A stretch of 64,000 nt of DNA from a virus (IMGVR_UViG_3300043399_000371:36285-100284), one strand, 5' to 3'; shown: positions 28,758 to 45,666, counted from the stretch's first letter. Notes: a model not told the origin generated them from the sequence alone. Made by a program: numbers and translations.

Positions 28758-29135
28758 TTATTCCGTAGGCATAGTGGGCCAAATGACATCTGTAGGATAT
28801 CCAGTTTGTCCTGTGAGATCCCTTAGTTGTTGTCTATAGTCAGCCCATTCTTGTCTTTTTTGTTCAGTAATTGGATAATCTAATAACATATATTTATCAG
28901 ATAATTGAAGATACTTGTCTCTTCTACTTCTAACTCTCCAACACAATTCACCATATGTTAATTCTGGTTCGTTAGTTTGCCACTCTCCATTTTGAAGAAG
29001 TGTCCAACCAACTTCACCATCGTTTCTCGGTGACTTAATGAAATATGCATGATCTTTCCATTCGGATTCATCTTCCAAAAAAAGAATATTGATACATTGA
29101 TTATTCCTTGAATCTAATATACATAAACGATTCAT
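28758..29135 (-). CDS. tail fibre assembly chaperone-like protein
   Basis: C-terminal R.RRD..L..SD.....DYP....EWADYRQQLRDL..Q.GYP..V.WP motif. Confidence 0.8.
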   Translation of the reverse strand: MNRLCILDSRNNQCINILFLEDESEWKDHAYFIKSPRNDGEVGWTLLQNGEWQTNEPELTYGELCWRVRSRRDKYLQLSDKYMLLDYPITEQKRQEWADYRQQLRDLTGQTGYPTDVIWPTMPTE

Positions 29136-29144
29136 ATTTTTTCC

Positions 29145-30116
29145 TTAGATAGACAAATACTCTATAACTCTTATATAACCAGCAGCACCATTTCCTCCAA
29201 CAACACCACCAGTTGCGTTTGTGTTTACTCCACCAGATCCACCTCCACCATAAACTGTTGCATTTACACCAGCAGTTGAACCAGCAGCATTTAATCCCGG
29301 CCCTTGAGCACCAGATCCCCAAAAGGAATGACCGCCGTTTCCACCGCGAACAATTGGTCCAGCCGCGCCGACACCATCACCACCATCTTGCCCTTCAAGA
29401 TTTAAAGTTCCACCAGTAGGAAGTCCACCTGCGCCACCACCAAATGTTCCCCAAGTGTTACCATAAGCAGATCCTGTTCCTGTACCGGCAGCGCCACCTG
29501 TACCTGTAATAACCCCGGCAGTACCAGTTGGTGTGAATGTCGAATTACCACCACCAGTACCATTACCACCAGCAACTGAACCACCGCCCCCGGCAGTACC
29601 TATCGAATAGGTCGCATTAGCACCCAACTGTTGTGGAAAAAGTATTGCAATCGCCGTTCCTCCAGCCCCACCACCTCCAGATGCACTAGAAGAAGTTCCA
29701 TCAGAGTCACAACCACCCCCACCACCCCCGGCACCAGTAACATATACTTCGGTGTATAATGTCGATGCGTTTGCGGTAAATGTTCCAGTTCCTGTTGTGT
29801 ATTCTGTTATTAGTATACTTTTTGCATAAGCAGTCCCAGAGTATCCAGAGATACCAGAGTATCCAGATGTTCCTATACCAGAATATCCGGAGTATCCAGA
29901 AATACCCGAATAGCCTGATATACCCGAATAGCCTGATATACCCGAATAGCCTGATATACCAGAGTATCCAGAAAAACCTGAGTATCCAGATGTTCCAGAA
30001 TATCCAGAGATGCCTGAAAATGAAACAGAACCGGGTTGTCCTGAGTATCCAGAATATCCTGAAATACCAGATTGTCCGGTAAAGTTTGTATTGAGAAGTG
30101 AACTTAAAATAGCCAT
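29145..30116 (-). CDS. Ser-Gly-X repeat (collagen-like) fibre protein with Gly-rich C-terminal domain
   Basis: aa 15-95 are (SG-I/Y/T/F)n triplets; C-half TEVYVTGAGGGGGG...GAAGYIRVIEY; exact late promoter upstream; chaperone gene downstream. Confidence 0.7.
   Translation of the reverse strand: MAILSSLLNTNFTGQSGISGYSGYSGQPGSVSFSGISGYSGTSGYSGFSGYSGISGYSGISGYSGISGYSGISGYSGYSGIGTSGYSGISGYSGTAYAKSILITEYTTGTGTFTANASTLYTEVYVTGAGGGGGGCDSDGTSSSASGGGGAGGTAIAILFPQQLGANATYSIGTAGGGGSVAGGNGTGGGNSTFTPTGTAGVITGTGGAAGTGTGSAYGNTWGTFGGGAGGLPTGGTLNLEGQDGGDGVGAAGPIVRGGNGGHSFWGSGAQGPGLNAAGSTAGVNATVYGGGGSGGVNTNATGGVVGGNGAAGYIRVIEYLSI
29832..30074 (-). repeat. coding SG-X tandem repeat containing a perfect 18-bp unit in 3.3 copies
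   Basis: Plus-strand ATACCCGAATAGCCTGAT at 29902-29919, 29920-29937 and 29938-29955, inside degenerate 9/18-bp repeats. Confidence 0.9.
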
Positions 30117-30123
30117 ATTGTTT

Positions 30124-30131
30124 TATTTATA
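30124..30131 (-). promoter_or_regulatory. T4 late promoter
   Basis: Exact TATAAATA 8 nt upstream of the SG-repeat gene ATG. Confidence 0.75.
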
Positions 30132-30555
30132 AGTATTTAATTATTTCTTTCGGTTCTAAAAAACAGTCATTACGATATGAAACCATCTCCCACATAAAGA
30201 ATTGTTTTTCCAGAAGATAGTTTCTGCCTTTCAACAAATTTATGTTTTCTGGATGACCGAATATATTTGGATCTGATTGTCCCCAAATAACAATTCCGTA
30301 TTTACCAACATCCCAACAAAAGTGTTGAAAGAAACTGTCAACAGAAATCCAAGTTCTACATTGTAAAACAAGTTCTTTTAGTTCTGGTAAAGACAAATTT
30401 TTTCTAAAGTCTTCAACCAATTGTTCTTCACCATCGACACCAACTTGTACAATCGGTTCTTTGATCAATGAAATCAGTTCTTTCCAATAGGGATAATCTT
30501 TTGGGTTTGGTTTTCCGTTAAGTAGTTTTTTAGCAAATGGAGATACAATAATCAT
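30127..30555 (-). CDS. GT9-like (heptosyltransferase-type, GT-B) C-terminal half
   Basis: K.YPYW, IVQVG, LSLPELKELV..CRTWISVDSFFQH, GIVIWGQSDP..FG. Confidence 0.72.
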   Translation of the reverse strand: MIIVSPFAKKLLNGKPNPKDYPYWKELISLIKEPIVQVGVDGEEQLVEDFRKNLSLPELKELVLQCRTWISVDSFFQHFCWDVGKYGIVIWGQSDPNIFGHPENINLLKGRNYLLEKQFFMWEMVSYRNDCFLEPKEIIKYL

Positions 30556-31526
30556 TTTTCAACCATATACAATTTTCTATAAGCATTTTCAATGGAACCT
30601 TTCCATCCCCATTCATCCATTTTCTTATAAATGTTAAATTGTTCGATATCACCAAAAAGACATTTTGCTTCTTCTATAGATCTCCCCGGTATTATTTGTG
30701 GGTAAGAACTGAAAACAACTGGATCTTTTATATCTTTAAGAACACGTTTAAAAACAATGTGATCTCCCATCCCATTATTTATAACAACAATTGTTTTATT
30801 TTTTAGTTGAACTATGTTGCGAAAAATGTTCTCATCATGCTCATATAATTCTTGTCGTTTTTCTGAACGTATTCCACCATTTGGATTTTTACTGTGCCAA
30901 GTTATAGTATTCGGAATAGCCAATATTCGATATCCCTTTTTCTTTATTTCGTATGTGAAAAGAGTTTCTTCCCGGTGTGCAACTCTGGACAGTCCGAGAT
31001 TATAGTTTGCAATCCGCGTTCTATACAAAAACGAACAATGAAGATGATCAACCTCTTTGACTTCACGAATTAAATTCCATTGAATATTGCTTTCTGTGTC
31101 GATGTTTTCTATTTTACCTGTTGACCTTGTTGTATCAAAATTTGTATTTGGAATAATTATAGAACCGCCGATTGCCCCAACATCATCTGAAATGTAAGAG
31201 CATAAGTTTTCCAAGACATTGTTCTCAGCAATATTGTCATCGTCAATTCTCCACACCCAATCAAATTTAGTATTGTTTGCCAATTCGTGATTATAATGCT
31301 GACCTTTTTTCTGACCAAAAATAACTTCCCAACTGATTTGTTTTTGTGTCAGTATCTCAAATACAAATCGAATATGAGGAAGATTTCTCATATCAATTGG
31401 ATTATCGTTGTCATCAAATATTATTAGATGGTCAACCTTTCTTGTTTGATTGACTATTGACATCAAGGCCAAAGAAAGGGTAGAATCATATCTACCCCTA
31501 GTTGAGATAGAACACAGAACTCTCAT
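30552..31526 (-). CDS. GT2-like glycosyltransferase with C-terminal GT9-like N-half
   Basis: SIVNQT, IIFDDND, VWRIDDD, HREET; tail IVVINNGMGDHIVF resembles the GxGD start of GT9. Confidence 0.72.
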   Translation of the reverse strand: MRVLCSISTRGRYDSTLSLALMSIVNQTRKVDHLIIFDDNDNPIDMRNLPHIRFVFEILTQKQISWEVIFGQKKGQHYNHELANNTKFDWVWRIDDDNIAENNVLENLCSYISDDVGAIGGSIIIPNTNFDTTRSTGKIENIDTESNIQWNLIREVKEVDHLHCSFLYRTRIANYNLGLSRVAHREETLFTYEIKKKGYRILAIPNTITWHSKNPNGGIRSEKRQELYEHDENIFRNIVQLKNKTIVVINNGMGDHIVFKRVLKDIKDPVVFSSYPQIIPGRSIEEAKCLFGDIEQFNIYKKMDEWGWKGSIENAYRKLYMVEK

Positions 31527-33388
31527 TTGAAAGCCTCAACGGTTAGAAACAAATGAGCAGTTTCTGGCATCACATAATTAGATGCTGGTGGTAGTCTTCT
31601 TACAAATTTAAAACCAGACCAAGACAAATTTGTTCTAAGTTGTGTTTCTGTGAATAGAAATTTGTGAGTCTGACCGGGAACCCAAGGTTGAGCAAACATA
31701 TGTCCATACAACCTTATCCTCCATTGTTCTATATCACAAGTTGGACTGCCTTCAACAAAAGAACGACAAGTCTCCAACAGATCAGGAGTTTCTAAATAAA
31801 GTCTACCATTAGGCTTTAGAACCCTATACCATTCATCCAATATATTTTTAATTTCCAAAAAATCGAAATGCTCTATTATGTGAAATGCTTTTATTTCATC
31901 TACTGAGTTATCTGGATATGGAAGCTTTTTGACATCAAATCTTGCGTCACACTTAGCATCTTCTGGGGAATATAAATCGATATTAATATATTCTTCATTA
32001 TAATCGTAACCACAAGCAAGATGTAATTTCAATTGATTCAAAAGCTTATACTTGTTTTTGAATTTTTCAGATGGAATATTCTCTTCAGGGAGAACTAAAA
32101 AGGAAACATTCTCCTGACACGAATAAAAAGTATAATTGCTTTCGTGAAGTCTTATACACAAGTCCCAAAACTCATCACTATCCAAAGATTCGTCAAATCT
32201 ATGATTCTTAAAACATTCTCTTTGTATCAGCACACTTGAACTATCTATGAAATTGTTGTGATATAATTGTCTACCCAAAAAGACATTCGGAGATATTACC
32301 TGTGGATTTGGGTTTGTAGAATATATTATATTGGCGTGTTCTTTTTGTGTAAGAAGAGTTTGTAAAAAAATACTTGACCAAAAACGATTGGAGTCCAAAA
32401 AACATATGTAATCACAAAAACCAAAAAGTGCTTCTTTTATTAATATATTTTTTGCTTCACTCGGAGAATTGTTTTTTCCTGTAATCAATACCACACTATG
32501 ATCTCTTGGAAACATACTCTTTATGAGTTCTTTGCCACCAAACTTTTCATCGATGTATATGTAATGAATAACATTATCTACGTTCTGTCTTTTAACGGAA
32601 TCGACAGTTTGAAACAGATCCTCGATTCTATCTGTTATAGTAGTCAATACTGCTATTTTTTTATCGTTGGTTTGTTTTGATAATTTCCAATAAAAGTTTT
32701 TTTCGTATGCAAGAGATAATTTGTTTTTTGTGAATGTAACATCCCAAAGACTTACAAGGTTTTTGTCTAGCATTGTTCCCTCTGCGACATGATATATCGG
32801 AAAAGCCCCTGTATAGAATTCGGTTGTTAATGATTTATCTGTGATTTCGTAAATCTCAAATCCAGCATCTTCCACCTTCATGGAAAATTCTATATCTTCA
32901 CAAGAACCAATTCCATATTTTTCGTTGAGTAGTCCTATCTTATCGAACACTTTTCGGTCTATCATCACACAGAAAAATATGGCATAATGTCTACAGGTTA
33001 CTGGTGTGAATTCTTTTACTACACAAGATATACCACAATCTGGATTTTGGAATGGTTTTTCCAAAGTTTCCAACCAAAAATTTTTAGGTTGATTTAGAAG
33101 TCTTGTATCATTGTTTAAAAGAATAATTTTATCACACGTTGCTTCTTTGATGCCATTGTTTGTTGCTTTTGGATAACCCAAAGGAACATCATTCCACACA
33201 AGCTTTATGTGATTGCCGTAAATGTATTTGAGTTCGTTGACGTATTCGCGTGTATTGTCTGTACAACCATTTGCGGAGATAATTATTTCGATGTCTTCTA
33301 TATTGGAATATAGAAGAATCGATTCGACACAATTGACCAAAAAATCATTACAATGATTGTATGTTGGGATGACTATGCTATATTTCAT
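31523..33388 (-). CDS. tandem GT2-GT2 plus class I SAM methyltransferase fusion
   Basis: SIVIPTYN, GCTDNT, GYPKATNNG, ILLNND; second degenerate GT2 (YICFLDSN, FDESL); LHLACG...PYPDNSVDEI...HIIEH...WYRVLKPNG. Confidence 0.8.
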   Translation of the reverse strand: MKYSIVIPTYNHCNDFLVNCVESILLYSNIEDIEIIISANGCTDNTREYVNELKYIYGNHIKLVWNDVPLGYPKATNNGIKEATCDKIILLNNDTRLLNQPKNFWLETLEKPFQNPDCGISCVVKEFTPVTCRHYAIFFCVMIDRKVFDKIGLLNEKYGIGSCEDIEFSMKVEDAGFEIYEITDKSLTTEFYTGAFPIYHVAEGTMLDKNLVSLWDVTFTKNKLSLAYEKNFYWKLSKQTNDKKIAVLTTITDRIEDLFQTVDSVKRQNVDNVIHYIYIDEKFGGKELIKSMFPRDHSVVLITGKNNSPSEAKNILIKEALFGFCDYICFLDSNRFWSSIFLQTLLTQKEHANIIYSTNPNPQVISPNVFLGRQLYHNNFIDSSSVLIQRECFKNHRFDESLDSDEFWDLCIRLHESNYTFYSCQENVSFLVLPEENIPSEKFKNKYKLLNQLKLHLACGYDYNEEYINIDLYSPEDAKCDARFDVKKLPYPDNSVDEIKAFHIIEHFDFLEIKNILDEWYRVLKPNGRLYLETPDLLETCRSFVEGSPTCDIEQWRIRLYGHMFAQPWVPGQTHKFLFTETQLRTNLSWSGFKFVRRLPPASNYVMPETAHLFLTVEAFK

Positions 33389-33410
33389 GATATAAATTCC
33401 AATTCAAAAA

Positions 33411-34574
33411 TTATTTTTTATCTATTTCTTTTTTCAGTTCTTTTATAGCCTCTATTAGAAGTCCTATGATATTTCCATACGAAACTGTTTTCTCACCGTT
33501 CTCATTTGTCTGAACAACTTCAGGAATTATCTTTTCAATCTCTTGAGCGATAACACCAATAGATTCCTGTCCGGTATCTTTTAGCGTATATGAAACACCA
33601 CGTAATGACAAAACTTTTTCAAGAGAATTTGTTATAGTCTCTATGTTTTCTTTCTTTCTTGCGTCAGAAAGTGTATTGAAATTTGTTGTAGTTAATGATC
33701 CTGTTGTTGCATCAAATTCAAGTTTATTGGTTGTCGTTGTAACTTTTGCAGCTTGACCACCGGCAGCAGAAACCATTACTGGATACAAAGCAGATGTTGT
33801 TGTGTCATTTGTTGCTTTGATAACTTCTGTTGATGGTGATGTGATGGATGGAAATATCTCCCATGTTGACCCATCATATACAAACTCCATTCTTAGAGTT
33901 CCAATATCAACAGTTAAATTTTCTGCGAGACCTTCAATAGTTGAACCATTTCTACCAATAATTAAATTGTTTGTTCCCCAATTAGCACCATCAACAATAA
34001 CAACAGAATGACCAGTTGTTGGTGTTGCTGGTAGATTAATCGTGAAGGAACCACCAGACGTATCCGCTACAATTTTATCACCATTGACTGCCGTGTATGC
34101 GCTTGTTTTTATTAGGTAAGAGGTTGCTCCACTTGTACTAGATGCTGCTTTGCTGACCCATGTACCACCTTCTGATGTCAAAACATTACCAGCAGTTCCG
34201 GGTGCTACAGTAAGAACGTTTCCAGTACCATTTCCTAATATTACAGCATTAGCACTAATTGTACTTAATCCTGTACCACCACTCGATACAACTAACGGAT
34301 TTGAAAGTGTTAGGCGACCTGCGGATAGAGTTCCTGTTGCTTTGTCAAATGTTAGAGATGCATTTGCCCCAAGAACCCCACCGTCATTAAATTGTATTTC
34401 CTTATTTAATCCAGATGGTCCAGTAAAACTTTGTAAATATTTTATGGCACCAGTTGTGTTGGAATAGAATAGCCGACCGTCAGTTGTGTTAATGGCTAGT
34501 TCACCATTAGCAAGTGATGTCGGCGTATTTCCTGTTACCGTAGAATATTTTATCTGAATTACTGTGTTTGCCAT
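33411..34574 (-). CDS. tail fibre-like protein: Mtd_N-like N-terminus and C-terminal S74 intramolecular chaperone
   Basis: MANTVIQIKYS...SLANGELAINTTDGRLFY; SDARKKENIETI..SLEKVLSLRGVSY, GVIAQEIE, AIKELK. Confidence 0.85.
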   Translation of the reverse strand: MANTVIQIKYSTVTGNTPTSLANGELAINTTDGRLFYSNTTGAIKYLQSFTGPSGLNKEIQFNDGGVLGANASLTFDKATGTLSAGRLTLSNPLVVSSGGTGLSTISANAVILGNGTGNVLTVAPGTAGNVLTSEGGTWVSKAASSTSGATSYLIKTSAYTAVNGDKIVADTSGGSFTINLPATPTTGHSVVIVDGANWGTNNLIIGRNGSTIEGLAENLTVDIGTLRMEFVYDGSTWEIFPSITSPSTEVIKATNDTTTSALYPVMVSAAGGQAAKVTTTTNKLEFDATTGSLTTTNFNTLSDARKKENIETITNSLEKVLSLRGVSYTLKDTGQESIGVIAQEIEKIIPEVVQTNENGEKTVSYGNIIGLLIEAIKELKKEIDKK

Positions 34575-35234
34575 TTAGAATGTACCACCAGATTGAACTT
34601 TAGTATTATTTAGTTCAGGTGGTTCGGGAAGTTTTTTCTGTTTTGTTGTTGGGACTGCCTCAAGAATTTGAGTAGCATATGTTTTCAATTCATTATAGCT
34701 AGCAACAAATTTCTTTTGGTTTTCTTTTATTTCATTTTTAAGTTGCTCAATTTCTTGATCTTTTTGTGAAACTAATTCATTAACTTGTTGAAGTTTTGTT
34801 TTAAAATATCCAACTTTATTGTCAGACTCTTGTTTCTGTGCAACAAGTTCATTTTTAGTATGTAGATCTTGCCTCAATGAATCGATCTCATTCTGCTTTC
34901 TCTGCAATTCTTGTTCCAAACCAACAACCCTCTGCGTTGTCTCATTCAAAGCTTGTTGAACTCTATTTTTTTCTAATAGAATGGCATCACCATCAACAAC
35001 TCTTTGCTTTAAAGATTCGGCAGAGGATAGTTCAATTTGTTGTTGAGAGATTGTCAAATTCAATCTCTCAAGTTCGGTTAGTAGTTCTTGAATCTTTTGA
35101 TCAGCTTCTGCTTTTTCGTTTTTAATGTTTGACACAATCTTTAGTTGTGTCTGAAAAATTAAGTTTTGTTTCAGAACTGCATCAAAATTTTCAAGAACTA
35201 CATCCTTGTAATTGTTTAGAAATTCCACATCCAT
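34575..35234 (-). CDS. long coiled-coil protein ending in GGTF
   Basis: Q/E/K heptad-rich over about 190 aa; GGAG SD. Confidence 0.75.
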   Translation of the reverse strand: MDVEFLNNYKDVVLENFDAVLKQNLIFQTQLKIVSNIKNEKAEADQKIQELLTELERLNLTISQQQIELSSAESLKQRVVDGDAILLEKNRVQQALNETTQRVVGLEQELQRKQNEIDSLRQDLHTKNELVAQKQESDNKVGYFKTKLQQVNELVSQKDQEIEQLKNEIKENQKKFVASYNELKTYATQILEAVPTTKQKKLPEPPELNNTKVQSGGTF

Positions 35235-35279
35235 ATTGTTTCTCCTTTTTCACAATAATTAAAAAGTTGTCTAAACTAT

Positions 35280-36674: not shown

Positions 36675-36718
36675 TTTTATAACCTTTTAAAATAATGAAC
36701 TATTTTATTATTTATTCA

Positions 36719-36976
36719 TTAGAAAAATCCGCCGGCAATCCGATCCAGATTTTCTAATGAAATTGCTTTTGCTTCGTATTTTTGTGTTATTGAATTATAA
36801 ATTAATGTGAAACCATCTTGGACGTTGTTGGTATTAACGTCATTCAACTCACCTATAGATAAATCCAAAACTGGAGAAAAATTTGGATTTGCAATTGTTG
36901 TTTGAACACTTTCCCGTATTCTAATTCTTCTATTAGAACTATTATTTGAAATAGTAACCTTGCCTATATTTGGCAT
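36719..36976 (-). CDS. small fibre-associated protein
   Basis: Contains L.ELNDVN.....DG.TLIYN....KYEA, a fibre-shaft-type repeat; ends GGFF. Confidence 0.7.
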   Translation of the reverse strand: MPNIGKVTISNNSSNRRIRIRESVQTTIANPNFSPVLDLSIGELNDVNTNNVQDGFTLIYNSITQKYEAKAISLENLDRIAGGFF

Positions 36977-36977
36977 T

Positions 36978-37310
36978 TTATCTAGTTACTCCCGGTAAAA
37001 CGACAGCGATCCCTTCAACTACCCTTGTAACTTCTCCGGTATCCGATGTAATTGTCACATCATAAAAATATCTTCCGGGATCTAAGTTTGCGGTATTTGC
37101 TGAAGACATTGATATGGTAATTTCTCCATTCGAACTGTCTGTAATGGTTGCTACGAAATCTTTTGCTGTTGACGAGTAGAAAGACTTCCTCATCTGTGAA
37201 GCAGCAGAATAAGACGATAGATTTAAAGAATCGCCTTGTATATCTTCCACGTTTAAAGAAGTAGAAAATGTCGTATACTGCTCAATTGTTATTTCTGAAT
37301 ATGCGGCCAC
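36978..37310 (-). CDS. Ig-like/BppU-type virion adaptor protein
   Basis: GTG start with GGAG SD; LNLSSY.A.SQMRK, G.ITIS.....T.NL..GRY.YDV, RVVEG...V.PGVT. Confidence 0.7.
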   Translation of the reverse strand: MAAYSEITIEQYTTFSTSLNVEDIQGDSLNLSSYSAASQMRKSFYSSTAKDFVATITDSSNGEITISMSSANTANLDPGRYFYDVTITSDTGEVTRVVEGIAVVLPGVTR

Positions 37311-37335
37311 GAATGTCTCCGTATGTTATTTATTA

Positions 37336-37343
37336 TATTTATA
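37336..37343 (-). promoter_or_regulatory. T4 late promoter heading the fibre-GT operon
   Basis: Exact TATAAATA about 26 nt upstream of the GTG at 37310. Confidence 0.75.
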
Positions 37344-37368
37344 CATAACTAGTATTGAGGTGAGAAAA

Positions 37369-38070
37369 ATGCAAAGAAAAATAACAATAGGCACGACGTA
37401 TTATAACAATCCCGACAATCTAAAGGGGTTCTTGAAAAACCATTTAGAATACTGTGATGAGTTTTTGATTGTTGATGATGGGTCCGAAATACCTATGGAC
37501 AAACATCTTCCCAAAGACGAAAGAATAAAAGCCTTCAAAGTTAAAAAGGACTATGGCTTTAATTCACATGGATGTAGAAATCTGATAATGAAACAGACAA
37601 GCAATGAATGGAACATTCTTTTGGATATAGATCGGTATTTTGTTGATGCTCAGTATTCATTCAATACACTAAAACAAAGACCACTAAAAAACAATGTTCT
37701 TTATAAATTCATGGCATTTACAGAATGGGCATCAAAATCAGACTCCGCACATGAATCTGTTAATGATTTTCTTATTCACAAAGACTACTTTTTTAGTGCT
37801 GGTGGGTATGATGAAGAACTAATGGGGTATAGAACTGGTGATAGAGAATATTTTTATCAGCTAGAACATTTCGGGCACAAAAGAGTTCTTTATGATATTG
37901 AAATCATGCTATGTCGAAAACCTTCCACCACATTACACTCAAATGAAAAATCTAAATTTGACAAGAAACAAAAACTTGATTGGGCAACACAAAAACTAAT
38001 TTATGATAGAATAAAGTCCCCACAGAAGGTAAAACCAATTCTTACCTTCGAATGGGAACGTATTGTTTAA
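37369..38070 (+). CDS. GT2-like glycosyltransferase on the opposite strand
   Basis: ITIGTTYYN, FLIVDDGS, CRNLIM, ILLDIDR, GGYDEEL.GY..GD; GAGG SD before ATG 37369. Confidence 0.75.
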   Translation: MQRKITIGTTYYNNPDNLKGFLKNHLEYCDEFLIVDDGSEIPMDKHLPKDERIKAFKVKKDYGFNSHGCRNLIMKQTSNEWNILLDIDRYFVDAQYSFNTLKQRPLKNNVLYKFMAFTEWASKSDSAHESVNDFLIHKDYFFSAGGYDEELMGYRTGDREYFYQLEHFGHKRVLYDIEIMLCRKPSTTLHSNEKSKFDKKQKLDWATQKLIYDRIKSPQKVKPILTFEWERIV

Positions 38071-39056
38071 ATGTTTTGATATGTCTTTAGGTCAAACTTT
38101 GTTCCTTTCATTTTATTGATAGAAACTAGATCGTTGTTCTTCCAGACAAGAACTTCGTTGTCATCATAAAGAAAATCACAATCCTTACAGAAAGAAACTT
38201 CATCAAATCTTTTTTCGTGGTGCATCTGTCTCAACCATTGATATTTTTCGCCATTCCAGACTTCGGCAACAGACTTCCCATCAAGACTTCCAAGATCTGC
38301 TTCAGCGTCTCTTCCTAGAGTTTGGCAACATGGAGCAACAGTTAATTTGCCACCATTGTTTCCTCCAGCCCTAACGGTCAAGTCTGGAGAGAATGGTCTA
38401 CCACAACTTCTCTTTTCTCCGCGACGTTTATAATCAGAATCGTAAACACCAGACCAATTATGCATTTTCCAAATTTCTGCAAATGATCCAACTGGTTCAA
38501 TGAAATTTTTACGATATTGCTCGATCTCAAAGTCAACTTTATCATTATCAAGTATTAAGTGGTATGATGCGACAATACAGTCAGATCCAGTTTCACCAAT
38601 ATATTTTTTCATGTTGATTGCATTGGATTTGATGACATTGAATGCGTCACGGTTCATCCATTTCATATACTGCAATTGACTGTATCCGATCACCGAGAAA
38701 CGTGCTAACGAGAGACCAGCATCCACACATCGTTTCATATAATCATCTTTTAAATTAAATCCGTTTGTGTAGATGAATACCTTTGCACCATATTTTCTAA
38801 CTATCTTGATGTAATCTGGGAGGTTTCTATTTAGTGTTGGCTCACCAGAACCCTCAAGGTTTACAACATTGAGTCCTGCCTCTGCACATTCAGCTACGAT
38901 CCTCTCAAAGTCTTTAAGAGACATCTTTTTGAGCCAGTCCTTGCCTCGTCCTGTTGTTTGTGGACACATACCACAGGAATAGTTACATCCCCCATTGATT
39001 TCAATTACAGCACGGTCAATAGATAAAGGAATTATAAAGTTCGTGTTTTGTTGCAT
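38067..39056 (-). CDS. radical SAM protein with C-terminal SPASM/twitch domain
   Basis: CNYSCGMC (CxxxCxxC), GSGEPTLN, YTNG; RSCGRPF...VAPCC...FCKDC. Start uncertain (39056 or 39068). Confidence 0.9.
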   Translation of the reverse strand: MQQNTNFIIPLSIDRAVIEINGGCNYSCGMCPQTTGRGKDWLKKMSLKDFERIVAECAEAGLNVVNLEGSGEPTLNRNLPDYIKIVRKYGAKVFIYTNGFNLKDDYMKRCVDAGLSLARFSVIGYSQLQYMKWMNRDAFNVIKSNAINMKKYIGETGSDCIVASYHLILDNDKVDFEIEQYRKNFIEPVGSFAEIWKMHNWSGVYDSDYKRRGEKRSCGRPFSPDLTVRAGGNNGGKLTVAPCCQTLGRDAEADLGSLDGKSVAEVWNGEKYQWLRQMHHEKRFDEVSFCKDCDFLYDDNEVLVWKNNDLVSINKMKGTKFDLKTYQNI

Positions 39057-39795
39057 CTTTTTTCTCACTAATGTAATTTTGATGGAGTTGTTTCACTTCC
39101 TCGACTCTTTTCTGACTTGCTCTGACATAATTCTTAATGTTAGAATCGAGAAATCTTTTTGGGTTATCTTCTAGAACTGCTTGTGGTATGAGAACACTAT
39201 TTAATGGTTTTCTTTTACAGAAAACGATCAAAGGTTTCCACATAAATTTAAATAATTGGTGTGCTAAACCATCATAACCAATACCGAATTCACATTCATT
39301 TATGTGTCTAATTACTTGTTTGATTGGTGTTCTATATGTCACTTCATAAATATCATACCCAGACATATGTAGCTTTGCACGAATATCAAGCCAATGTTTA
39401 TGTGCTGGATCTTTATTTATTCCGGGAAATTCTATATTGAAATCTGTTGTCCAGAGAACAACTTTTTTCTTGGTTTCTTGTGGTTCAAGATTAGTGTACC
39501 ACAAACCATGTAGAGGATTAAATTCGTCTAGTTGGTTATAGAATCTAAATTTCGGATTACTATTGAATTTGTGATGGATAGTTATTCCATCAGTTTGTTT
39601 GAAAATAGATTCTATGTATTGAAATCTATCAAATAGAGTTTCAGTATCAAGTGGTGAGTATAGGTGATTTTTGTCATCCTTCCAATGAAACGTTATGTCT
39701 ATTGGTCTTTCATATTTTAGTCTTGATGTGTGTGCATAGCCAAGACCAGTTACAAAATCACCATACCCAATTCCAGTTCGCCATTCTATATTCAT
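39016..39795 (-). CDS. GT-B/GT9-like putative glycosyltransferase
   Basis: N-terminal GIGYGDF; C-terminal INECEFGIGYDGLAHQL...KPLIVF resembles the GT9 IG.DSG..H motif. Confidence 0.5.
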   Translation of the reverse strand: MNIEWRTGIGYGDFVTGLGYAHTSRLKYERPIDITFHWKDDKNHLYSPLDTETLFDRFQYIESIFKQTDGITIHHKFNSNPKFRFYNQLDEFNPLHGLWYTNLEPQETKKKVVLWTTDFNIEFPGINKDPAHKHWLDIRAKLHMSGYDIYEVTYRTPIKQVIRHINECEFGIGYDGLAHQLFKFMWKPLIVFCKRKPLNSVLIPQAVLEDNPKRFLDSNIKNYVRASQKRVEEVKQLHQNYISEKKDATKHELYNSFIY

Positions 39796-39797
39796 AA

Positions 39798-40466
39798 TTA
39801 CTGATTGAAGATTTCTGGATCACAATCTCCTTTTGTAATTTCTTTGATCATATTAATCCACATATCTTTATTGTGCATTACCCAAGCTAGAGTTACCCTT
39901 TGTTTTTTGGTTTCTGCCATATGCCAGAAAACCCTATTTGGTTCTTTTCTTTCATTTGGGTAATATCCTACACGAACATTCCATCCGGGTTGATCTTGTA
40001 GTCTCACGATTGATTTTGTGTTATAGTCCCAATAGCTGAAGTTACCATCACCATCTTGACTGTATGTTAGAAGTACATTGTAACCGGGAGCATTTCCATT
40101 ATGGTGCCATCCGATATATCCATTATCTGGGTATGACATGATTAGAGCATTTACCGGAGTTCCCAAAAAGTTTCCGATTCTTGCTGCTTTCTTTCGAACA
40201 GATTCAACTTTATCCCAAATTTGTTGGCTAGCATTATTCATTCCTAATCCAAGAACTGCCCTTGGGAATCCATATTCAGATACGGGATGCTTAAATGCTT
40301 CAAACAAATACTCGTCGGAGCATGGGTGAAAATTTGGATTTAATTTATCTTTTTGCTCTGGAAGACTGAAAACTAAGTCCTTAACAACTCCCGAATAAAA
40401 CTCATCAGTTATACTCGATAATAGGGTCGTTAGTCGCTCGCTTTTTAACTTTACGGGTTTCATCAT
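39798..40466 (-). CDS. cupin / 2OG-Fe(II) oxygenase-like protein
   Basis: YPDNGYIGWHHNGN...VFWHMAE...RVTL (H-x-N...H with a downstream Arg). Confidence 0.5.
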   Translation of the reverse strand: MMKPVKLKSERLTTLLSSITDEFYSGVVKDLVFSLPEQKDKLNPNFHPCSDEYLFEAFKHPVSEYGFPRAVLGLGMNNASQQIWDKVESVRKKAARIGNFLGTPVNALIMSYPDNGYIGWHHNGNAPGYNVLLTYSQDGDGNFSYWDYNTKSIVRLQDQPGWNVRVGYYPNERKEPNRVFWHMAETKKQRVTLAWVMHNKDMWINMIKEITKGDCDPEIFNQ

Positions 40467-41232
40467 TTATCCTTTTCTGTATTTCTTGCCAAACAAATGG
40501 CATTTTACTCCAAGACTGCTTATCAATTTGTGTGATAACTGCTGGACCATCATTGTCTTCTGGTAAGTCCTGTCCTGAGTTGTTCCACCTTCTCGGCAAA
40601 GTTATTATGTTTAAATCATCAAATCTGCTAAATTCAGGAAACCTTTTGCTGGTCATTCTCCACAAAGTAAACATATCAAAATTCTGCCATTCCTGATAAT
40701 GGTCTTTGTATGTCCAAGGAGTGGTTACTTGTTTGATATATTCTTCATACCATGTTGTCATGAAGTCTATACTTTTTTCGTTTTTGTGATAACCGAAACA
40801 AGAACCATGCAACTTAGCAAAGTGCTTTCTCTGTTTATCTATGTAAGCCCATTTGAGATTTCCAACAGTATACACCATATTGCTGCCAAAGAACATATCA
40901 CAATTATCAAGAAAATCGTGCATATTCCTGATGTCTCTATGTCTTACAATAGAGTCACAATCATTAAAAATAGTTCTCTGGTATGGTGTTCTAGCACAAC
41001 ACCACATTCTTGCTCTGGCGTGGATTGGAATATTTGTTATAACCCTATCGAAAACCTTACATCTTTCGTCTGTAAATTTTTCGTGGGTGAATAGGGTTAT
41101 ATGTGAGTTTGGATAATAGTCTTTTAGAGACTGTGCTGAAATTAAAGCCAACTCATAATATAAAACGTCTTTAGAAGCGGTGTACACGAATCCATCTTGT
41201 GCGCTTCTTCCATTATCATAATGTATATTCAT
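40405..41232 (-). CDS. GT-A (GT8-like) nucleotide-sugar transferase
   Basis: ISAQSLK, ITLFT, TIFNDCDSIV (DxD), LPRRWN. Confidence 0.6.
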   Translation of the reverse strand: MNIHYDNGRSAQDGFVYTASKDVLYYELALISAQSLKDYYPNSHITLFTHEKFTDERCKVFDRVITNIPIHARARMWCCARTPYQRTIFNDCDSIVRHRDIRNMHDFLDNCDMFFGSNMVYTVGNLKWAYIDKQRKHFAKLHGSCFGYHKNEKSIDFMTTWYEEYIKQVTTPWTYKDHYQEWQNFDMFTLWRMTSKRFPEFSRFDDLNIITLPRRWNNSGQDLPEDNDGPAVITQIDKQSWSKMPFVWQEIQKRINDETRKVKKRATNDPIIEYN

Positions 41233-41235
41233 AAA

Positions 41236-41721
41236 TTATTTATTAAATTGCAAATCATCGATCATATCAAATAGATCTATAAATGACATTCCTTTTTCTG
41301 TTATGTATTTCTGTGCAAGATGCATGATGATGATATTTAGCATCAATGGGTCTGGGGCGCGACGAACAGCAGCTTTGTCTTCATCAGATGCCTCAGACAC
41401 AAATGGTAAGCTGAAACATCTCATTTTCATGTCGAACAACATTTTCAGTTTGTCGTTTTCTATTGCTGCTTTTCGCTTTTTATCTGCAAATTCTTGATTC
41501 TGTTTAGCACGTTCCTCAATGCGATTTCTTTGATCACGCATTTGTTTCTCATCGAACTCGTCAAGAATTCGATCCCAATATTCGTTCACTCCACGTTCCC
41601 TATTTGCTGGAACTGTGAATTCTGCCAAGGACTCAATACCATTTTCACGAACAAGAGTCATTCGAATTCTTGTTTTTTTGGCATCAACGTAAACTGGATT
41701 TTTTATGATAGGATATTTCAT
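41236..41721 (-). CDS. hypothetical helical protein (possible chaperone)
   Basis: 161 aa, GAGG SD, charged helical C-half. Confidence 0.7.
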   Translation of the reverse strand: MKYPIIKNPVYVDAKKTRIRMTLVRENGIESLAEFTVPANRERGVNEYWDRILDEFDEKQMRDQRNRIEERAKQNQEFADKKRKAAIENDKLKMLFDMKMRCFSLPFVSEASDEDKAAVRRAPDPLMLNIIIMHLAQKYITEKGMSFIDLFDMIDDLQFNK

Positions 41722-41744
41722 TTGTATACCTCTTTAAACATTAT

Positions 41745-42497
41745 TTATTTAGCTTTCTGTATCACCACAATATATTCGTTGTGGTTGTCTTCTGCTTTGT
41801 CACCTATATTATATCTTTTTCTGAGTTGTTTGTTGTTCAGAATATGTCTTAGTCCCAAATTCTCATGGCTATAGATTTTTATTTTGTTACCTTCTTTTCG
41901 TTTCTGCTCAAGTACCGAAGATAAACTTTCTAATTCTTCTCTACCGTATCTATGTGATATATCTTCGATGAAATAGAAACCGCCTTTTTTCAAATAATCC
42001 CAAGAAGATTCTAGAGTCTTTATTTGTGAATATGGGTGGTGGTCTCCATCGTCGATAATAATATCAAACTCTTTACCATATAATTCCAACCAATCATCTT
42101 TCTTTGTGCTATCAAAATACAATGTCTTGACTTTATTGAATGATTGAAATTTCTTTCTGAGTTCTTGAATGTTCATCACTCTGTCTTGGTTTATCACAAT
42201 ATCCACACCATAAACAGTTGACTTTGTAAAATATTTTTGCCAAGCTAATAAACCAAAACCATAATGTGTTCCAACTTCAATAATACTCAGATTCTTGTCT
42301 TTTAATTTAGAAATGTATTTTGAGTAAACAGCATAGTATCCCCTCCATCCACCTCGATCCGTTTCATTAGGATCTCTGTCTGGAAAGTTTTGCTTCATTG
42401 TATATCTGTTGTGGTTTGGATTATAATTCAAAAGTTTCTTCAATTCTTCATCGTAACTTTTGATTGTCTTATAACTTTTGGCTTCTGTGAATATCAT
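41745..42497 (-). CDS. class I SAM O-methyltransferase (Methyltransf_24 / sugar O-methyltransferase-like)
   Basis: IIEVGTHYG, VYGVDI, FDIIIDDGDH, LKKGGFYFIED. Confidence 0.8.
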   Translation of the reverse strand: MIFTEAKSYKTIKSYDEELKKLLNYNPNHNRYTMKQNFPDRDPNETDRGGWRGYYAVYSKYISKLKDKNLSIIEVGTHYGFGLLAWQKYFTKSTVYGVDIVINQDRVMNIQELRKKFQSFNKVKTLYFDSTKKDDWLELYGKEFDIIIDDGDHHPYSQIKTLESSWDYLKKGGFYFIEDISHRYGREELESLSSVLEQKRKEGNKIKIYSHENLGLRHILNNKQLRKRYNIGDKAEDNHNEYIVVIQKAK

Positions 42498-43147
42498 ATT
42501 TCTATAAATTTGTGAAATTTATCCTGTGACCAATGTTCTGGGTGAATGTTACAATAATGCTCAACGGTATTACCATATTTAGATGACATGACTTGGTTGC
42601 TACATGGAACATATTTTTTATGGGAGGAGTTTACAACTTTGTCAACAATTTTTTCATGCAAGGCAAATCCATGTATGAATGAATATGGTCCTGCTGTTAT
42701 TTCTGTATCCATAGAAACTTCGACCAATTTTTTTGCAAACCAAGGTTTTATTGCATAACTTCCCATTGCAGCTTTATCATAGAAAATAATACCATAATTG
42801 TCATTTTTCCATAATTTTTCTGGGTGTTCAAGAAACGAATCATGTTCCATAATCAAAATTTCTTGATTCAAAAAACAACATTCTTGCCAAAGCTTGAAAT
42901 GACTGTACCAAACTGCTTTTTCCGTATCTGTTATCTCTGCTTTTAAATTTAGATTTAAATATTTTCTGGCATGAGAATATTTGGTGAATCTAAGTTCCTT
43001 TTGCTTAACAAGTGTCTTTGGTGTTATAGCAGGAAACTTTTTTACTTTTAGGCCAGCTTTTTCCCATGATGGTATACAGTAGCTGGCATAATAGTTGGAT
43101 GCTTCACTATCTTCAACAACAATCATAAAACAATTTTCAAATAACAT
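42494..43147 (-). CDS. GT25-like (Lex2/LgtB-type) glycosyltransferase
   Basis: FPAITP, TEKAVWYSHFKLWQEC, ILIMEHD, GSYAI.P..AKKL. Start coupled (TAATG) to the upstream gene. Confidence 0.65.
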   Translation of the reverse strand: MLFENCFMIVVEDSEASNYYASYCIPSWEKAGLKVKKFPAITPKTLVKQKELRFTKYSHARKYLNLNLKAEITDTEKAVWYSHFKLWQECCFLNQEILIMEHDSFLEHPEKLWKNDNYGIIFYDKAAMGSYAIKPWFAKKLVEVSMDTEITAGPYSFIHGFALHEKIVDKVVNSSHKKYVPCSNQVMSSKYGNTVEHYCNIHPEHWSQDKFHKFIEI

Positions 43148-44805
43148 TATGCAACTCGTTTCCAAAGAGTAATTTCTGTGATAATTTCTGTTGTTACCTG
43201 TACTCTTTCGCCTTCATATGTTAGAATGTATGCTGTTGGGTTTCCAAGATAGTCTGTGCCACCGGGGTCTAATGATGTATATGATACCTGTCCAGTAAAT
43301 CCTACAGCACCAACGTAATCAGATCCGCCGAATGATGCACCATCATATGCAACTGCGGCATCATATAGTCCAACACCATAAAGGTCGCCGGTATATGATG
43401 TAATGAATCCACCAATAAATCCAGCATATGTCCCCCAGAATGTAATACCTGCCAAATATTCATTACCAACAGAACCTTGATATAAACCACCCCAATAAGT
43501 TTCCACACCAGTATATGTTGCGGTATAGGATGAAGCAACCCCTGCTGTATATGTAACACTACCTGTATATGTTGCACCGGGAGAATTGTAATTTGTAGAT
43601 GTTGCTGAATTAAATGCTTCCTCGGACGAATATGATGCTGAGAGACCAGTATATGGTGTTATATCTGCTGGACCAGTATAGTTAGTAAATAAGCTTGCAT
43701 AATCTGTTTCACCACCAAGATAATCTGTAAAATTGATTGCATATTCTGGGTTAAGATATACAGGACCATATGAACCAGCGTCAGGATCTTCGCCTATAAA
43801 ATCTGTTGGAGAGTTATATGAACCACCAGCATAAGATACTGCACCATCAACACCAGTATAATTTGATACCCCCTGATAAACAGCAGTTACATAGTTCGTG
43901 TCAGTACCAACATAACCAACTTGACTTGTGTATATACCCTGAACAGATCCAAGATATTCATTTTGACCACCACCAATATATGAACCAGTATCAACAAGAC
44001 CAAGATATTCTGGATTCATATAATCGACACCATAGGATATGGTATCTGCATTAAATGATATGTCTGCTGTTATTCTACGAATATCTTGTACACTTCCACA
44101 GTCGGCCCAAACCCCGGTTACTGGTGGAGAACTCTGTAGAGCATAGAAACCAATGCCCGTAGAAATCATTGAACTTTCAACAGTTTTAATCAAAAGTCTC
44201 AAATCCATTTCCGAGAATTGAGTTAACTGTGAACCAGAAAGTTTTAGTGGTGCCAAAAATGATTCTTGATAACCATTATCAATTTTATGCCACAAATAAT
44301 ATGTGTTGTTTACTATTGTAAAATTTTCTAATGTGTCTTTTAATTCACCGATACTAACCCAAGTTCCACCATCTGCCGGTGCTGTTGGTCCAAGATAATA
44401 ACTGTTGATGCTGTTTTCGCCAGCAATCATATCCAAAATATAATTTGCTACGTTTTGGATTGGTGTGATACCTTCTTTTAATACAATAGTTGGAGAAGTT
44501 GATGTATCCAATCCAACATATTTTGGGGCATCTGGTTGTGCGCCATATGTTGATGTCTGTTGTTGAGAAAGTGTGTATGTGTTTGAATATACAGTAACGT
44601 TTGCGGAATCTACCCCTCCACCACGAACAGTATCTACGAACGTACCAATTGGATTTGTTGTGCCAAGAGTTATGGTTCCTGCAAAAGTCCCATTTGCCAT
44701 CTCTTGAAGAATCCAATTTGATATTCTCTGAATATCAGTATCATTTGCTTGAGTTAACTCTGATAACCCTTCATTTTGTTTTAGATATACTAGATTGATA
44801 CTCAT
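43147..44805 (-). CDS. virion-type protein with a long Tyr-x-Gly low-complexity region
   Basis: 552 aa; about 289-aa stretch (43207-44073) with about 38 Tyr and no K/R/H/C. Confidence 0.75.
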   Translation of the reverse strand: MSINLVYLKQNEGLSELTQANDTDIQRISNWILQEMANGTFAGTITLGTTNPIGTFVDTVRGGGVDSANVTVYSNTYTLSQQQTSTYGAQPDAPKYVGLDTSTSPTIVLKEGITPIQNVANYILDMIAGENSINSYYLGPTAPADGGTWVSIGELKDTLENFTIVNNTYYLWHKIDNGYQESFLAPLKLSGSQLTQFSEMDLRLLIKTVESSMISTGIGFYALQSSPPVTGVWADCGSVQDIRRITADISFNADTISYGVDYMNPEYLGLVDTGSYIGGGQNEYLGSVQGIYTSQVGYVGTDTNYVTAVYQGVSNYTGVDGAVSYAGGSYNSPTDFIGEDPDAGSYGPVYLNPEYAINFTDYLGGETDYASLFTNYTGPADITPYTGLSASYSSEEAFNSATSTNYNSPGATYTGSVTYTAGVASSYTATYTGVETYWGGLYQGSVGNEYLAGITFWGTYAGFIGGFITSYTGDLYGVGLYDAAVAYDGASFGGSDYVGAVGFTGQVSYTSLDPGGTDYLGNPTAYILTYEGERVQVTTEIITEITLWKRVA

Positions 44806-44972
44806 TAATTACCCCAGACAATAGTACCTGTAGAATCTTTTATAACAAGAGTCCTACTTGAACTATCCAAAAAACCAGATGATTGTACAGAACTTGAGAA
44901 TATTGCAGAATTTGCGTTTGTTACATTTCTATTGTCATCAACTACAATAATACCAGAAACTTTTATTGCCAT
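44805..44972 (-). CDS. 55-aa fibre-associated protein
   Basis: Not in ORF track; translated by hand: MAIKVSGIIVVDDNRNVTNANSAIFSSSVQSSGFLDSSSRTLVIKDSTGTIVWGN. AAGGA SD; TAATG overlap with the next gene. Confidence 0.8.
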   Translation of the reverse strand: MAIKVSGIIVVDDNRNVTNANSAIFSSSVQSSGFLDSSSRTLVIKDSTGTIVWGN

Positions 44973-45009
44973 CTTCGTAATCCTTACTCGGCAGTTGTTT
45001 TACTATTTA

Positions 45010-45660
45010 TCACTCACCCCAAACCACATTACCATTAGAATCCTTTACAACTAATGTTCTGCTTGAACTGTCTAGGAAACCAGATGATTGAACTTTTTTG
45101 GAATATAGAGTTCCTGTATCTGGGTAAAAATAAATTTGTGTGTTTGAAACTTTTACATCAGAAACTGCACCAGTATCAGTATCGATGAATAACATATACT
45201 GAATGCTACTTGATACGGTATCATTGATAATCTGTAATGAAATGTTGTTTGCTTTATCAAATGCTGCTTGTGCTGTGATAACTGCACCATCATATTGATC
45301 AAGAGTAACTTTGTCTAATTGTTGACCAGAAAAATTAATAACACTTGCACTTATATTTGATATGTTTGCATTAGCAGCAAGAATACTTGTTGCGTTTAAA
45401 ATGGAAGTGTTAGAAACATTCGAATAACTAGTATTGCTACTAATAGAGACAACATTAATCGTATTAGCATATAGTTGATTTATATTTGCCGAATTATCGA
45501 CAATCAGTTTTGATCCAGTTCCAGATATTTTTAATATTGTGTTCGATGTGAATGTTGCACCATTACCATCAGTTAATGTGTTTGCAAACTGAATTAATGA
45601 CTGTGTTGCTGTTAGCCATTGTTGAAAAGTATTATTGGATGTTATTTGATTGATGGGCAT
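45010..45660 (-). CDS. fibre/baseplate-associated structural protein
   Basis: MPINQITSNNTFQQW..ATQ N-terminus, Asn/Ser-rich shaft, AFDKAN, NDT...YMLF...TGTL module. Confidence 0.7.
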   Translation of the reverse strand: MPINQITSNNTFQQWLTATQSLIQFANTLTDGNGATFTSNTILKISGTGSKLIVDNSANINQLYANTINVVSISSNTSYSNVSNTSILNATSILAANANISNISASVINFSGQQLDKVTLDQYDGAVITAQAAFDKANNISLQIINDTVSSSIQYMLFIDTDTGAVSDVKVSNTQIYFYPDTGTLYSKKVQSSGFLDSSSRTLVVKDSNGNVVWGE

Positions 45661-45666
45661 TTTTCA

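Follow-up and report, generated by a model that had tools for sequence, protein, structure and literature searches.

What are glycosyltransferases doing in the middle of a phage tail-fibre region? The question is raised by a 64,000-nucleotide stretch of viral DNA, IMGVR_UViG_3300043399_000371:36285-100284 (hereafter the window), in which positions 28758-45660, between neck gene 13 and a baseplate giant, alternate fibre-type genes with seven or eight glycosyltransferase (GT) genes or half-genes. An original prediction, made from the sequence alone, had drawn this gene map and read it as one late pathway that builds a multi-sugar glycan on virion proteins. The map was borne out, with open reading frames (ORFs) where they had been placed, as were the tailoring enzymes, two methyltransferase domains and a radical S-adenosylmethionine (SAM)/SPASM enzyme, which score above Pfam cut-offs. 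A single eight-GT pathway was rejected: the enzymes fall into two modules, A and B, which are inherited independently. Because one enzyme set is strictly co-inherited with a tyrosine-rich protein, the sugars are probably put on proteins of the phage itself and not on the host surface. Taking both modules together, we give cytoplasmic glycosylation of the phage's own repeat-rich proteins an even chance, and our estimate is higher for module B than for module A.

Module B consists of the following genes, listed in the order in which the minus strand reads them.

43147..44805, minus strand: YxG (Tyr-x-Gly) protein, core; AlphaFold2 (AF2) model, composition, and synteny
42494..43165, minus strand: GT25, extension; PF01755 42.9 bits (cut-off 24), E 6.7e-11
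41745..42497, minus strand: SAM methyltransferase, Methyltransf_24; PF13578 28.1 bits (cut-off 26.3), phrog_21658 E 1.4e-16
41236..41721, minus strand: small conserved protein, core; no family match
40405..41232, minus strand: GT8-like protein, a glycogenin-like GT-A of 275 aa, core; assigned by family profile, no Pfam match alone
39798..40466, minus strand: 2-oxoglutarate (2OG)/Fe(II)-oxygenase-fold protein of 222 aa, core; AF2 model with a predicted local distance difference test score (pLDDT) of 93, Foldseek
39016..39795, minus strand: GT9-like (GT-B-like) protein of 259 aa, extension; Atlas features 0.95 to viral GT9 clusters, Atlas structure template modelling (TM) score 0.62
38067..39068, minus strand: radical SAM/SPASM enzyme, extension; PF04055 57.7 bits (cut-off 29.5), E 2.2e-15; PF13186 37.5 bits (cut-off 21.5), E 2.9e-9
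37360..38070, plus strand: GT2, extension, convergent with the radical SAM gene; PF10111 29.8 bits (cut-off 27.3), PF13704 28.6 bits (cut-off 27.5)

The four core genes form a tetrad whose inheritance could be followed in both directions. Uncultured viral contigs often encode homologues of the oxygenase-fold protein (169 matches), and the loci anchored on them have the window's gene order: a large protein, (GT25, methyltransferase), small protein, GT8-like protein, and oxygenase, then the extension (GT9-like protein, radical SAM enzyme, small methyltransferase-like protein, reverse-strand GT2), with gp13 or a fibre block next. The YxG N-terminal domain, used as a profile, matched 34 of 45 oxygenase-anchored loci, against 0 of 193 other loci; where at least 3 kb of upstream sequence was present, a same-strand YxG gene lay upstream in 32 of 35. 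The reverse test used 68 loci anchored on the YxG N-domain alone, with identities down to 25-30%. All those with at least 2.5 kb downstream carried both the GT8-like and the oxygenase gene (63/63), and a profile of the small protein hit 64 of the 68. A complete genome with a 75% identical gp13 is without YxG, GT8-like, and oxygenase genes; the window's own genome was the positive control in the YxG search. Given the two-way synteny and this joint absence in a close complete relative, the tetrad is an accessory unit that is gained or lost whole. The tie between YxG proteins and these enzymes, which the original prediction had proposed to check by a synteny survey, is close to obligate in both directions. 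It supports the idea that the GT enzymes are functionally tied to repeat proteins and not randomly scattered, and the obligate pairing of a large low-complexity protein with an apparently protein-type GT8 and a prolyl-hydroxylase-like enzyme supports glycosylation of the phage's own protein.

The extension genes (GT25, GT9-like, radical SAM, and reverse GT2) are present in about one-third of oxygenase-anchored loci and in few YxG-anchored ones, and the Methyltransf_24 gene, found in many YxG loci, is a frequent companion of the core. The GT25 start overlaps the YxG stop codon, and GT25 directly follows the YxG gene in relatives L119, L125, L122, and L126; a pattern scan with GT25 found no viral relatives. 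In 14 of 15 loci GT2 occupies this position and is likewise on the opposite strand; a radical SAM gene was absent from the fibre regions in the records of five relatives. Some relatives (L118:12394-12972, L119:12394-12963, and others) have an extra methyltransferase-like gene of ~190 aa between radical SAM and reverse GT2; the window is without it, and its radical SAM and GT2 genes meet tail to tail. Among GenBank phages, the only match to the oxygenase-fold and GT8-like proteins is the metagenomic 'Phage C48C1' (Kyanoviridae, OQ984149.1 141011-153450, our locus L351), where a hypothetical protein of 3347 aa is followed by a small protein, a GT8-like protein, a 235-aa gene, and an L-shaped tail-fibre assembly gene; this order is that of module B and then the fibre block.

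The YxG protein is the candidate acceptor of module B. Its AF2 model has a folded N-domain (residues 1-250, with two 'SAPxxGTW' repeats) closed by a C-terminal strand, and a middle stretch of ~280 residues that is predicted to be disordered, is rich in Tyr, Gly, and Thr, and has no Lys, Arg, His, or Cys. The disordered stretch holds 20 of the 22 YxG motifs in the protein, compared with 6.2 +/- 2.2 in shuffled sequences. The family comprises 638 representative clusters, all from uncultured sequence, and the disordered region of 118 representatives averages 13.6% Tyr, 13.1% Gly, 13.6% Thr, 6.3% Phe, and 0.5% Lys. Lengths of YxG-type proteins run from 370 to more than 2000 aa, and a single protein may hold as many as 86 YxG motifs; many loci (L328-L342, L295-L299, and others) have two tandem paralogues.

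Each of the two core enzymes has catalytic residues that are conserved across the family. The GT8-like protein keeps D91xD93, H142, and D186 in all 33 distinct sequences. The only significant matches of its family profile in the PDB are glycogenin-1 and -2 (1ll2, 3v8y, and others; E 1.4e-4), a weak match over ~95 residues of the N-terminal nucleotide-binding part, including the DxD motif. No family member of 27 matches PF01501 and 2 of 27 match PF03407 weakly, in neither case reaching the cut-off; Atlas groups the protein with Nucleotid_trans/GT8 clusters. Glycogenin, itself a GT8 enzyme, transfers glucose to a protein tyrosine, and the window's GT8-like gene has an extremely Tyr-rich neighbour, although glycogenin modifies itself and the acceptor here would be a separate protein. 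The oxygenase had been predicted as a cupin/2OG-like enzyme. Its double-stranded beta-helix fold agrees with that, and Foldseek gives a probability of 1.0 to Pseudomonas putida P4H, PHD2, AlkB, and PKHD-type hydroxylases with TM scores of only 0.3-0.43, so that the modelled fold appears nearest to protein prolyl hydroxylases; the expected iron triad does not. H121, N123, H182, and R190 (H-x-N...H...R) are invariant in 31 distinct sequences, and R190, eight residues past H182, would bind 2OG by analogy. An Atlas structure search with 39798-40466 also returned a viral cluster of ~306 aa (TM 0.70) in which 95% of members have a PF16778 chaperone domain, a hint that the oxygenase fold is sometimes fused to a fibre chaperone. 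The small conserved protein is possibly a chaperone or adaptor.

The 259-aa GT9-like protein of the extension has no Pfam, NCBIfam, or PDB sequence match and is tentatively assigned through look-alikes in Atlas features and structure. The radical SAM/SPASM enzyme keeps its CxxxCxxC motif, with C28, C32, and C35 conserved, and among its nearest PDB and NCBIfam matches are enzymes that modify sugars as well as enzymes that modify peptides. Its identity between loci (L118-L135) is 66-79%, compared with only 40-60% for neighbouring genes, which points to unusually strong constraint for an accessory gene.

We infer the following order of steps for module B. The oxygenase would hydroxylate residues in the Tyr/Gly/Thr-rich disordered stretch of the YxG protein, and the GT8-like enzyme would start O-glycosylation there; in the window phage the glycan would be lengthened by GT25, the GT9-like protein, and the reverse-strand GT2, with tailoring by the methyltransferase and the radical SAM enzyme. 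Systems of this general plan exist in the cytoplasmic, hydroxyproline-linked glycosylation of Skp1 and in hydroxylysine glycosylation of collagen (PLOD/LH3 with the GT25 enzyme COLGALT; mimivirus L230), in which a 2OG hydroxylase and the GTs work in succession on a protein. They resemble module B in combining a 2OG-dependent protein hydroxylase with GT-A transferases, GT25 in the case of collagen, but the likeness is at the level of fold, and the window's oxygenase has H-x-N and not H-x-D. A hydroxylysine route as in collagen was rejected because the YxG region has only ~0.5% Lys. A more specific proposal is that the tetrad is an undescribed, widespread phage system in which the GT8-like and H-x-N oxygenase enzymes hydroxylate and O-glycosylate the Tyr-rich domain, possibly on tyrosine, to build a 'fuzzy' sugar-coated virion appendage. 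We put this forward tentatively, as a possibility with the balance against it. A literature search found no paper on the YxG tetrad, the H-x-N oxygenase, or the strict inheritance of the tetrad.

The same synteny would fit any tight functional coupling, and the YxG protein might be a partner of the enzymes and not their substrate. It could be a lectin-like or scaffold protein whose beta-prism N-domain binds or carries a glycan or small molecule made by the neighbours, or the module might make a cross-linked Tyr-rich material for which glycosylation is secondary. Weak beta-prism/MABP-like fold matches (Z 6.7, 6.4, and 5.3 in the VIA wide search) point this way, as does the radical SAM/SPASM enzyme, the most conserved gene of the set, whose relatives include peptide cross-linking maturases. 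That enzyme is missing from most YxG loci, however, whereas GT8-like and oxygenase genes are always present, and the fold match is below the level that would mean more than a common arrangement. We consider a partner role distinctly improbable.

Module A lies next to a fibre gene of its own and consists of three overlapping enzyme genes.

31523..33388, minus strand: GT2/GT2-like/SAM methyltransferase protein, 621 aa; Pfam GT2 E 6e-22, Methyltransf_11 E 3.6e-9
30552..31526, minus strand: GT2-type GT-A domain with a conserved tail of ~90 aa; Pfam GT2 just under cut-offs
30127..30555, minus strand: stand-alone GT9 C-half (the sugar-nucleotide-binding half of a heptosyltransferase); family profile against WaaC
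29145..30116, minus strand: proline-free (Gly-X-Ser)n collagen-like fibre with a Gly-rich C-terminal domain; phrog_863 and phrog_1806, tail fibre/collagen-like

In the 621-aa protein, the domain between the GT2 and the methyltransferase is also GT2-like, since its profile cross-matches GT2 N-domains; the protein shows no sequence similarity to solved three-domain viral GTs and matches only generic GT2 and methyltransferase entries. The 324-aa GT2 at 30552-31526 falls short of Pfam cut-offs by little (26.7 bits against 27; 23.1 against 23.3) and is conserved at 50-62% identity across 33 viral loci. The 142-aa GT9 half is weak taken alone (PF01075, 18.4 bits against a cut-off of 22), yet the family profile matches residues 180-293 of WaaC (2h1f; E 1.3e-4), and the heptosyltransferase I model TIGR02193 picks up 17 of 19 members, weakly. 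This confirms the call of a GT9 half at 30127-30555, which is a true C-terminal half and a separate ORF in all cassette loci. Membership in the TibC/Aah family (BAHT, TIGR04414) was rejected, no family member matching at E 0.1. The companion claim, that 30552-31526 carries the GT9 N-half, was not upheld by sequence, the tail having no match to GT9 or to any PDB entry. Complex prediction nevertheless docks the tail on the C-half with an ipSAE of 0.82, compared with 0.00 for the best control; among solved pairs 51 of 78 attain the mark used, among mismatches 2 of 108. Agreement between runs is 100% for contacts, with a partner pLDDT of 93; the pass may reflect the predictor's memory of single-chain GT9 structures. 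The pair may be a split GT-B enzyme of two Rossmann domains, the C-half being a separate ORF to which the tail is predicted to bind.

The neighbouring fibre is the candidate acceptor of module A. It has uninterrupted Gly-X-Y triplets in runs of at least eight, 16 counted, with Ser at 94% of Y positions and Tyr, Ile, Thr, or Phe at X; with one Pro in the repeat region, it does not have the Pro/Hyp-rich composition of collagen. A pattern scan with its non-repeat peptides found no viral relatives. Most likely, module A would place a short, methylated, possibly heptose-containing glycan onto the serines of this fibre, the GT2 tail docking onto the separate GT9 C-half. Collagen-like spore proteins of the BclA/BclA3 type are O-glycosylated, and TibC and Aah are adhesin heptosyltransferases. 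The window resembles these systems in having a proline-poor Gly-X-Ser/Thr collagen-like protein beside GT genes and a GT9-related enzyme that could heptosylate serines; it differs in that the GT9 half matches LPS (lipopolysaccharide) heptosyltransferase I, the enzyme is split and joined to a GT2, and the association is statistical only.

That association was measured both ways. Searching with the 621-aa protein brought up 33 viral loci that hold this cassette, made up of one or two GT2s, a variable middle, the tailed 324-aa GT2, in some cases a methyltransferase, and the overlapping GT9 C-half ORF. Of the 80 nearest gp13 loci, one has it. A generic detector of Gly-X-Ser ORFs (at least eight triplets) was positive in 17 of the 33, compared with 0 of 125 loci without the cassette (Fisher 4e-14, uncorrected for relatedness), and in 8 of 13 clusters at 70% identity. 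Ser occupies Y in 81% of triplets in cassette loci, and the few collagen-like ORFs of control loci are of other types. In the reverse direction, 80 loci sampled by a Ser-Gly-X DNA pattern carried cassette A in 7-9 cases (~10%), compared with ~1% of controls. The two-way tests make the link a real enrichment that is not obligate. The predicted linkage of GTs to the Ser-Gly-Tyr repeat protein therefore survives as a statistical tendency and fails as a rule. Cassette A and the Gly-X-Ser fibre gene are adjacent wherever both are present. Giant Gly-X-Ser ORFs of more than 3300 aa, with ~780 triplets, lie directly upstream of cassette A in L026:3-9950 and L174:2527-12351.

Cassette A is mobile. In L018, a 335-kb contig, it lies between head genes and ribonucleotide reductase; in L035:9995-14878, a 173-kb contig, it is a single 1627-aa fusion beside proteins whose signal peptides are lipoprotein-like. 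In L004:7105-9302 and L005:1760-3957, an RfaE-like cytidylyl/adenylyltransferase, a sugar kinase, and an NAD-epimerase lie directly upstream, an arrangement consistent with a heptose donor for the GT9 half; RfaE-like, kinase, and epimerase genes of this type are absent from the window's own genome. Gly-X-Ser fibres do not need the cassette, and a dependence on it was rejected on the basis of near-complete (>=90%) genomes encoding them, among which it is found in 0 of 4.

Host envelope remodelling is an alternative explanation. Here the soluble GT9, GT25, GT8, and GT2 enzymes would act at the inner membrane face on the LPS or lipooligosaccharide (LOS) core or on a lipid-linked glycan, altering the surface during infection so that, for example, superinfection is blocked or progeny do not bind to debris, with the fibre region serving as an accessory hot spot. 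A number of findings weigh against glycosylation of the phage's own proteins, and several of them suit this alternative. GT9, GT25, and GT8 are the classic LPS/LOS core families, so that the GT types fit, and the GT9 half resembles WaaC and not the protein-glycosylating TibC family. Genes of this kind in host recognition clusters of pelagimyophages and cyanomyophages, where rfaE-type genes occur as well, have been interpreted as modifying the host O-chain (PMC7029224), a published reading that applies especially to cassette A. The cassette is often without Gly-X-Ser genes and vice versa: whole records with Gly-X-Ser proteins have it in 7 of 49 cases, near-complete ones, as noted, in none, and elsewhere its neighbours are sugar genes of the ADP-heptose type or head genes, away from any fibre gene. 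On the side of module B, the oxygenase carries Asn at the iron-triad position that Asp or Glu usually fills, and the YxG fold matches are weak. The YxG family has no tail-fibre or virion match in PHROG or Pfam, a PDB profile search gave nothing useful, a fold search in BFVD gave nothing, and tblastn of the N-domain against GenBank phages found no match, the family being absent from cultured phages. It is at most a putative fibre or virion part, its location in the virion being suggested solely by its place in the structural module.

Several observations speak against host remodelling. It leaves the obligate co-inheritance and joint loss of YxG, small protein, GT8-like, and oxygenase genes unexplained, and neither prolyl-hydroxylase-like nor SPASM radical SAM enzymes are LPS enzymes. 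No enzyme of either module has a transmembrane segment, all being soluble, and there is no flippase, ligase, polymerase, or membrane protein gene among the modules. The genes also lie inside an apparent late structural operon. We regard host remodelling as unlikely, though a contender worth keeping in view, and continue to prefer glycosylation of the phage's own repeat proteins.

The enzyme genes are co-oriented and tightly packed with fibre genes, an arrangement which suggests late expression. Late-promoter-like motifs had been proposed to precede genes throughout the block. The positions are as proposed, with NATAAATA sites 5-35 nt upstream of start codons, and of the block's 12 coding-strand NATAAATA sites, 7 are no more than 40 nt from a start codon. 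One site, TATAAATA, is 8 nt upstream of the Gly-X-Ser fibre gene (29145..30116); TATAAATA is also found, together with GGAG, 26 nt upstream of the gene at 36978-37310, and a late-type motif lies 35 nt upstream of the fibre gene start at 36674. The total in the window is nevertheless at chance (28 sites against 28.5 expected), which also counts against the preferred reading, and A-richness accounts for part of the strand bias of the sites. Genes preceded by a motif are those of fibre type, that of the small conserved protein, and a 55-aa ORF; almost no motif is directly before a GT, the only one lying 5 nt before the GT8-like gene and overlapping the stop codon of the gene upstream. Since motifs precede fibre-type genes and hardly any GT gene, the enzymes would be read through from fibre-gene promoters, as their spacing and orientation suggest. 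No terminator signals above chance were found.

Phage GTs frequently decorate genomic DNA, as in T4 and other phages with hypermodified bases (cited in PMC12619734 and PMC12801897), and the transferases of the window might act in this way on modified bases. The complete 168-kb genome has no Thymidylat_synt homologue (thymidylate synthase/dCMP hydroxymethylase) to supply a hydroxymethyl base, however, the genes lie in the structural and not the nucleotide-metabolism module, and their synteny is with repeat proteins. DNA glycosylation is very improbable.

The genome in question is a viral record of 168 kb with direct terminal repeats, contained in two runs of one freshwater metagenome sample. 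Its gp13 is 43-51% identical by tblastn to the neck proteins of Melnitz, HTVC008M, Cr30, and phiM-type T4-like phages, and megablast of the region against GenBank phages found no match. The window phage is a freshwater T4-like myovirus, and the region is its host recognition cluster: a VrlC giant and gp13/gp14 form the borders, and fibre genes (S74, PHROG) are mixed with seven or eight GTs. The borders and the remaining genes are as follows.

45880..51699, minus strand: VrlC-like baseplate giant, 1939 aa, upstream boundary; PF16075 DUF4815 E 1.4e-63
44805..45876, minus strand: three small proteins (55, 216, and 69 aa) between the giant and the YxG gene; translations
36719..37310, minus strand: two small fibre-block proteins, of which 36978-37310 matches phrog_3304 (E 3.9e-25) and resembles L-shaped tail-fibre assembly proteins
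35280-36674, minus strand: fibre protein; phrog_7389 tail fibre E 2.9e-12
34575-35234, minus strand: coiled-coil protein; Pfam coiled-coil noise matches only
33411..34574, minus strand: tail fibre with C-terminal S74 intramolecular chaperone; PF13884 E 1.3e-16, many tail-fibre PHROGs
28758..29135, minus strand: tail-fibre assembly chaperone; PF16778 Phage_tail_APC E 6.4e-19, phrog_4912 E 3e-19
27796..28752, minus strand: neck protein gp13, downstream boundary; phrog_211 head-tail adaptor E 2.7e-40, tblastn to T4-like neck proteins
26907-27788, after gp13: gp14; PF11649 E 3e-31

Genes for a gp8-like protein and the baseplate wedge come after the VrlC-like giant. The 55-aa and 216-aa proteins (44805-45660) have a C-terminal motif in common, and the same motif ends the gene just upstream of the YxG genes in relatives L118, L119, L125, and L130. 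The fibre block (p110-p85-fibre-coiled coil-fibre) is present in many gp13 loci without any GT. Outside the structural module, the window's genome has a GT2-like gene at G000:C1:113470-114225.

Host recognition clusters were described in pelagimyophages and cyanomyophages as a variable stretch, bounded by VrlC and the neck genes, in which fibres are mixed with GTs (Zaragoza-Solas et al. 2020, PMC7029224). GT8 is the commonest GT of these clusters, the GTs were read as modifiers of the host O-chain (LPS), and collagen-repeat proteins occur in the same structural operon. Because that paper describes such clusters, GTs among the fibre genes of an aquatic T4-like phage are already known. The window has the same hypervariable VrlC-gp13/14 island with fibres and several GTs; the YxG tetrad, Gly-X-Ser link, radical SAM enzyme, and oxygenase are not described in that paper, and the window further differs in belonging to a freshwater phage with families absent from cultured phages. 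The closest precedent for self-modification is in mycobacteriophages, where, according to the papers that cite the work, GTs encoded in the structural region glycosylate the phage's own capsid and tail-tube proteins in the cytoplasm (Freeman et al. 2023, cited in PMC12619734 and PMC12801897). On that account, GT genes are embedded among virion structural genes in both cases; the actinobacteriophage acceptors are the C-termini of capsid and tail-tube subunits, with glycans chemically shown, whereas the window, known from genes alone, offers repeat-rich candidate acceptors in the fibre region of a T4-like phage and other enzyme families. The two-module split, the YxG tetrad, and the Gly-X-Ser link are what this analysis adds; GTs in the region and virion glycosylation in mycobacteriophages were already known.

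The tetrad is a compact four-gene set that can be cloned, so that the choice between host surface and own virion is testable without phage culture, and it offers a new oxygenase variant (H-x-N) and a new candidate for a protein-directed GT8. Should the tentative reading of the tetrad hold, it would be the first virion glycosylation system of a T4-like phage and the first viral pathway to a tyrosine- or hydroxy-residue-linked glycoprotein. If the modules glycosylate virion proteins, aquatic T4-like phages would bear self-made glycan coats on their host-recognition apparatus, with effects on host range, adsorption, and stickiness to particles and grazers, and also on how to interpret the many 'LPS genes' that surveys of marine and freshwater viromes class as auxiliary metabolic genes.

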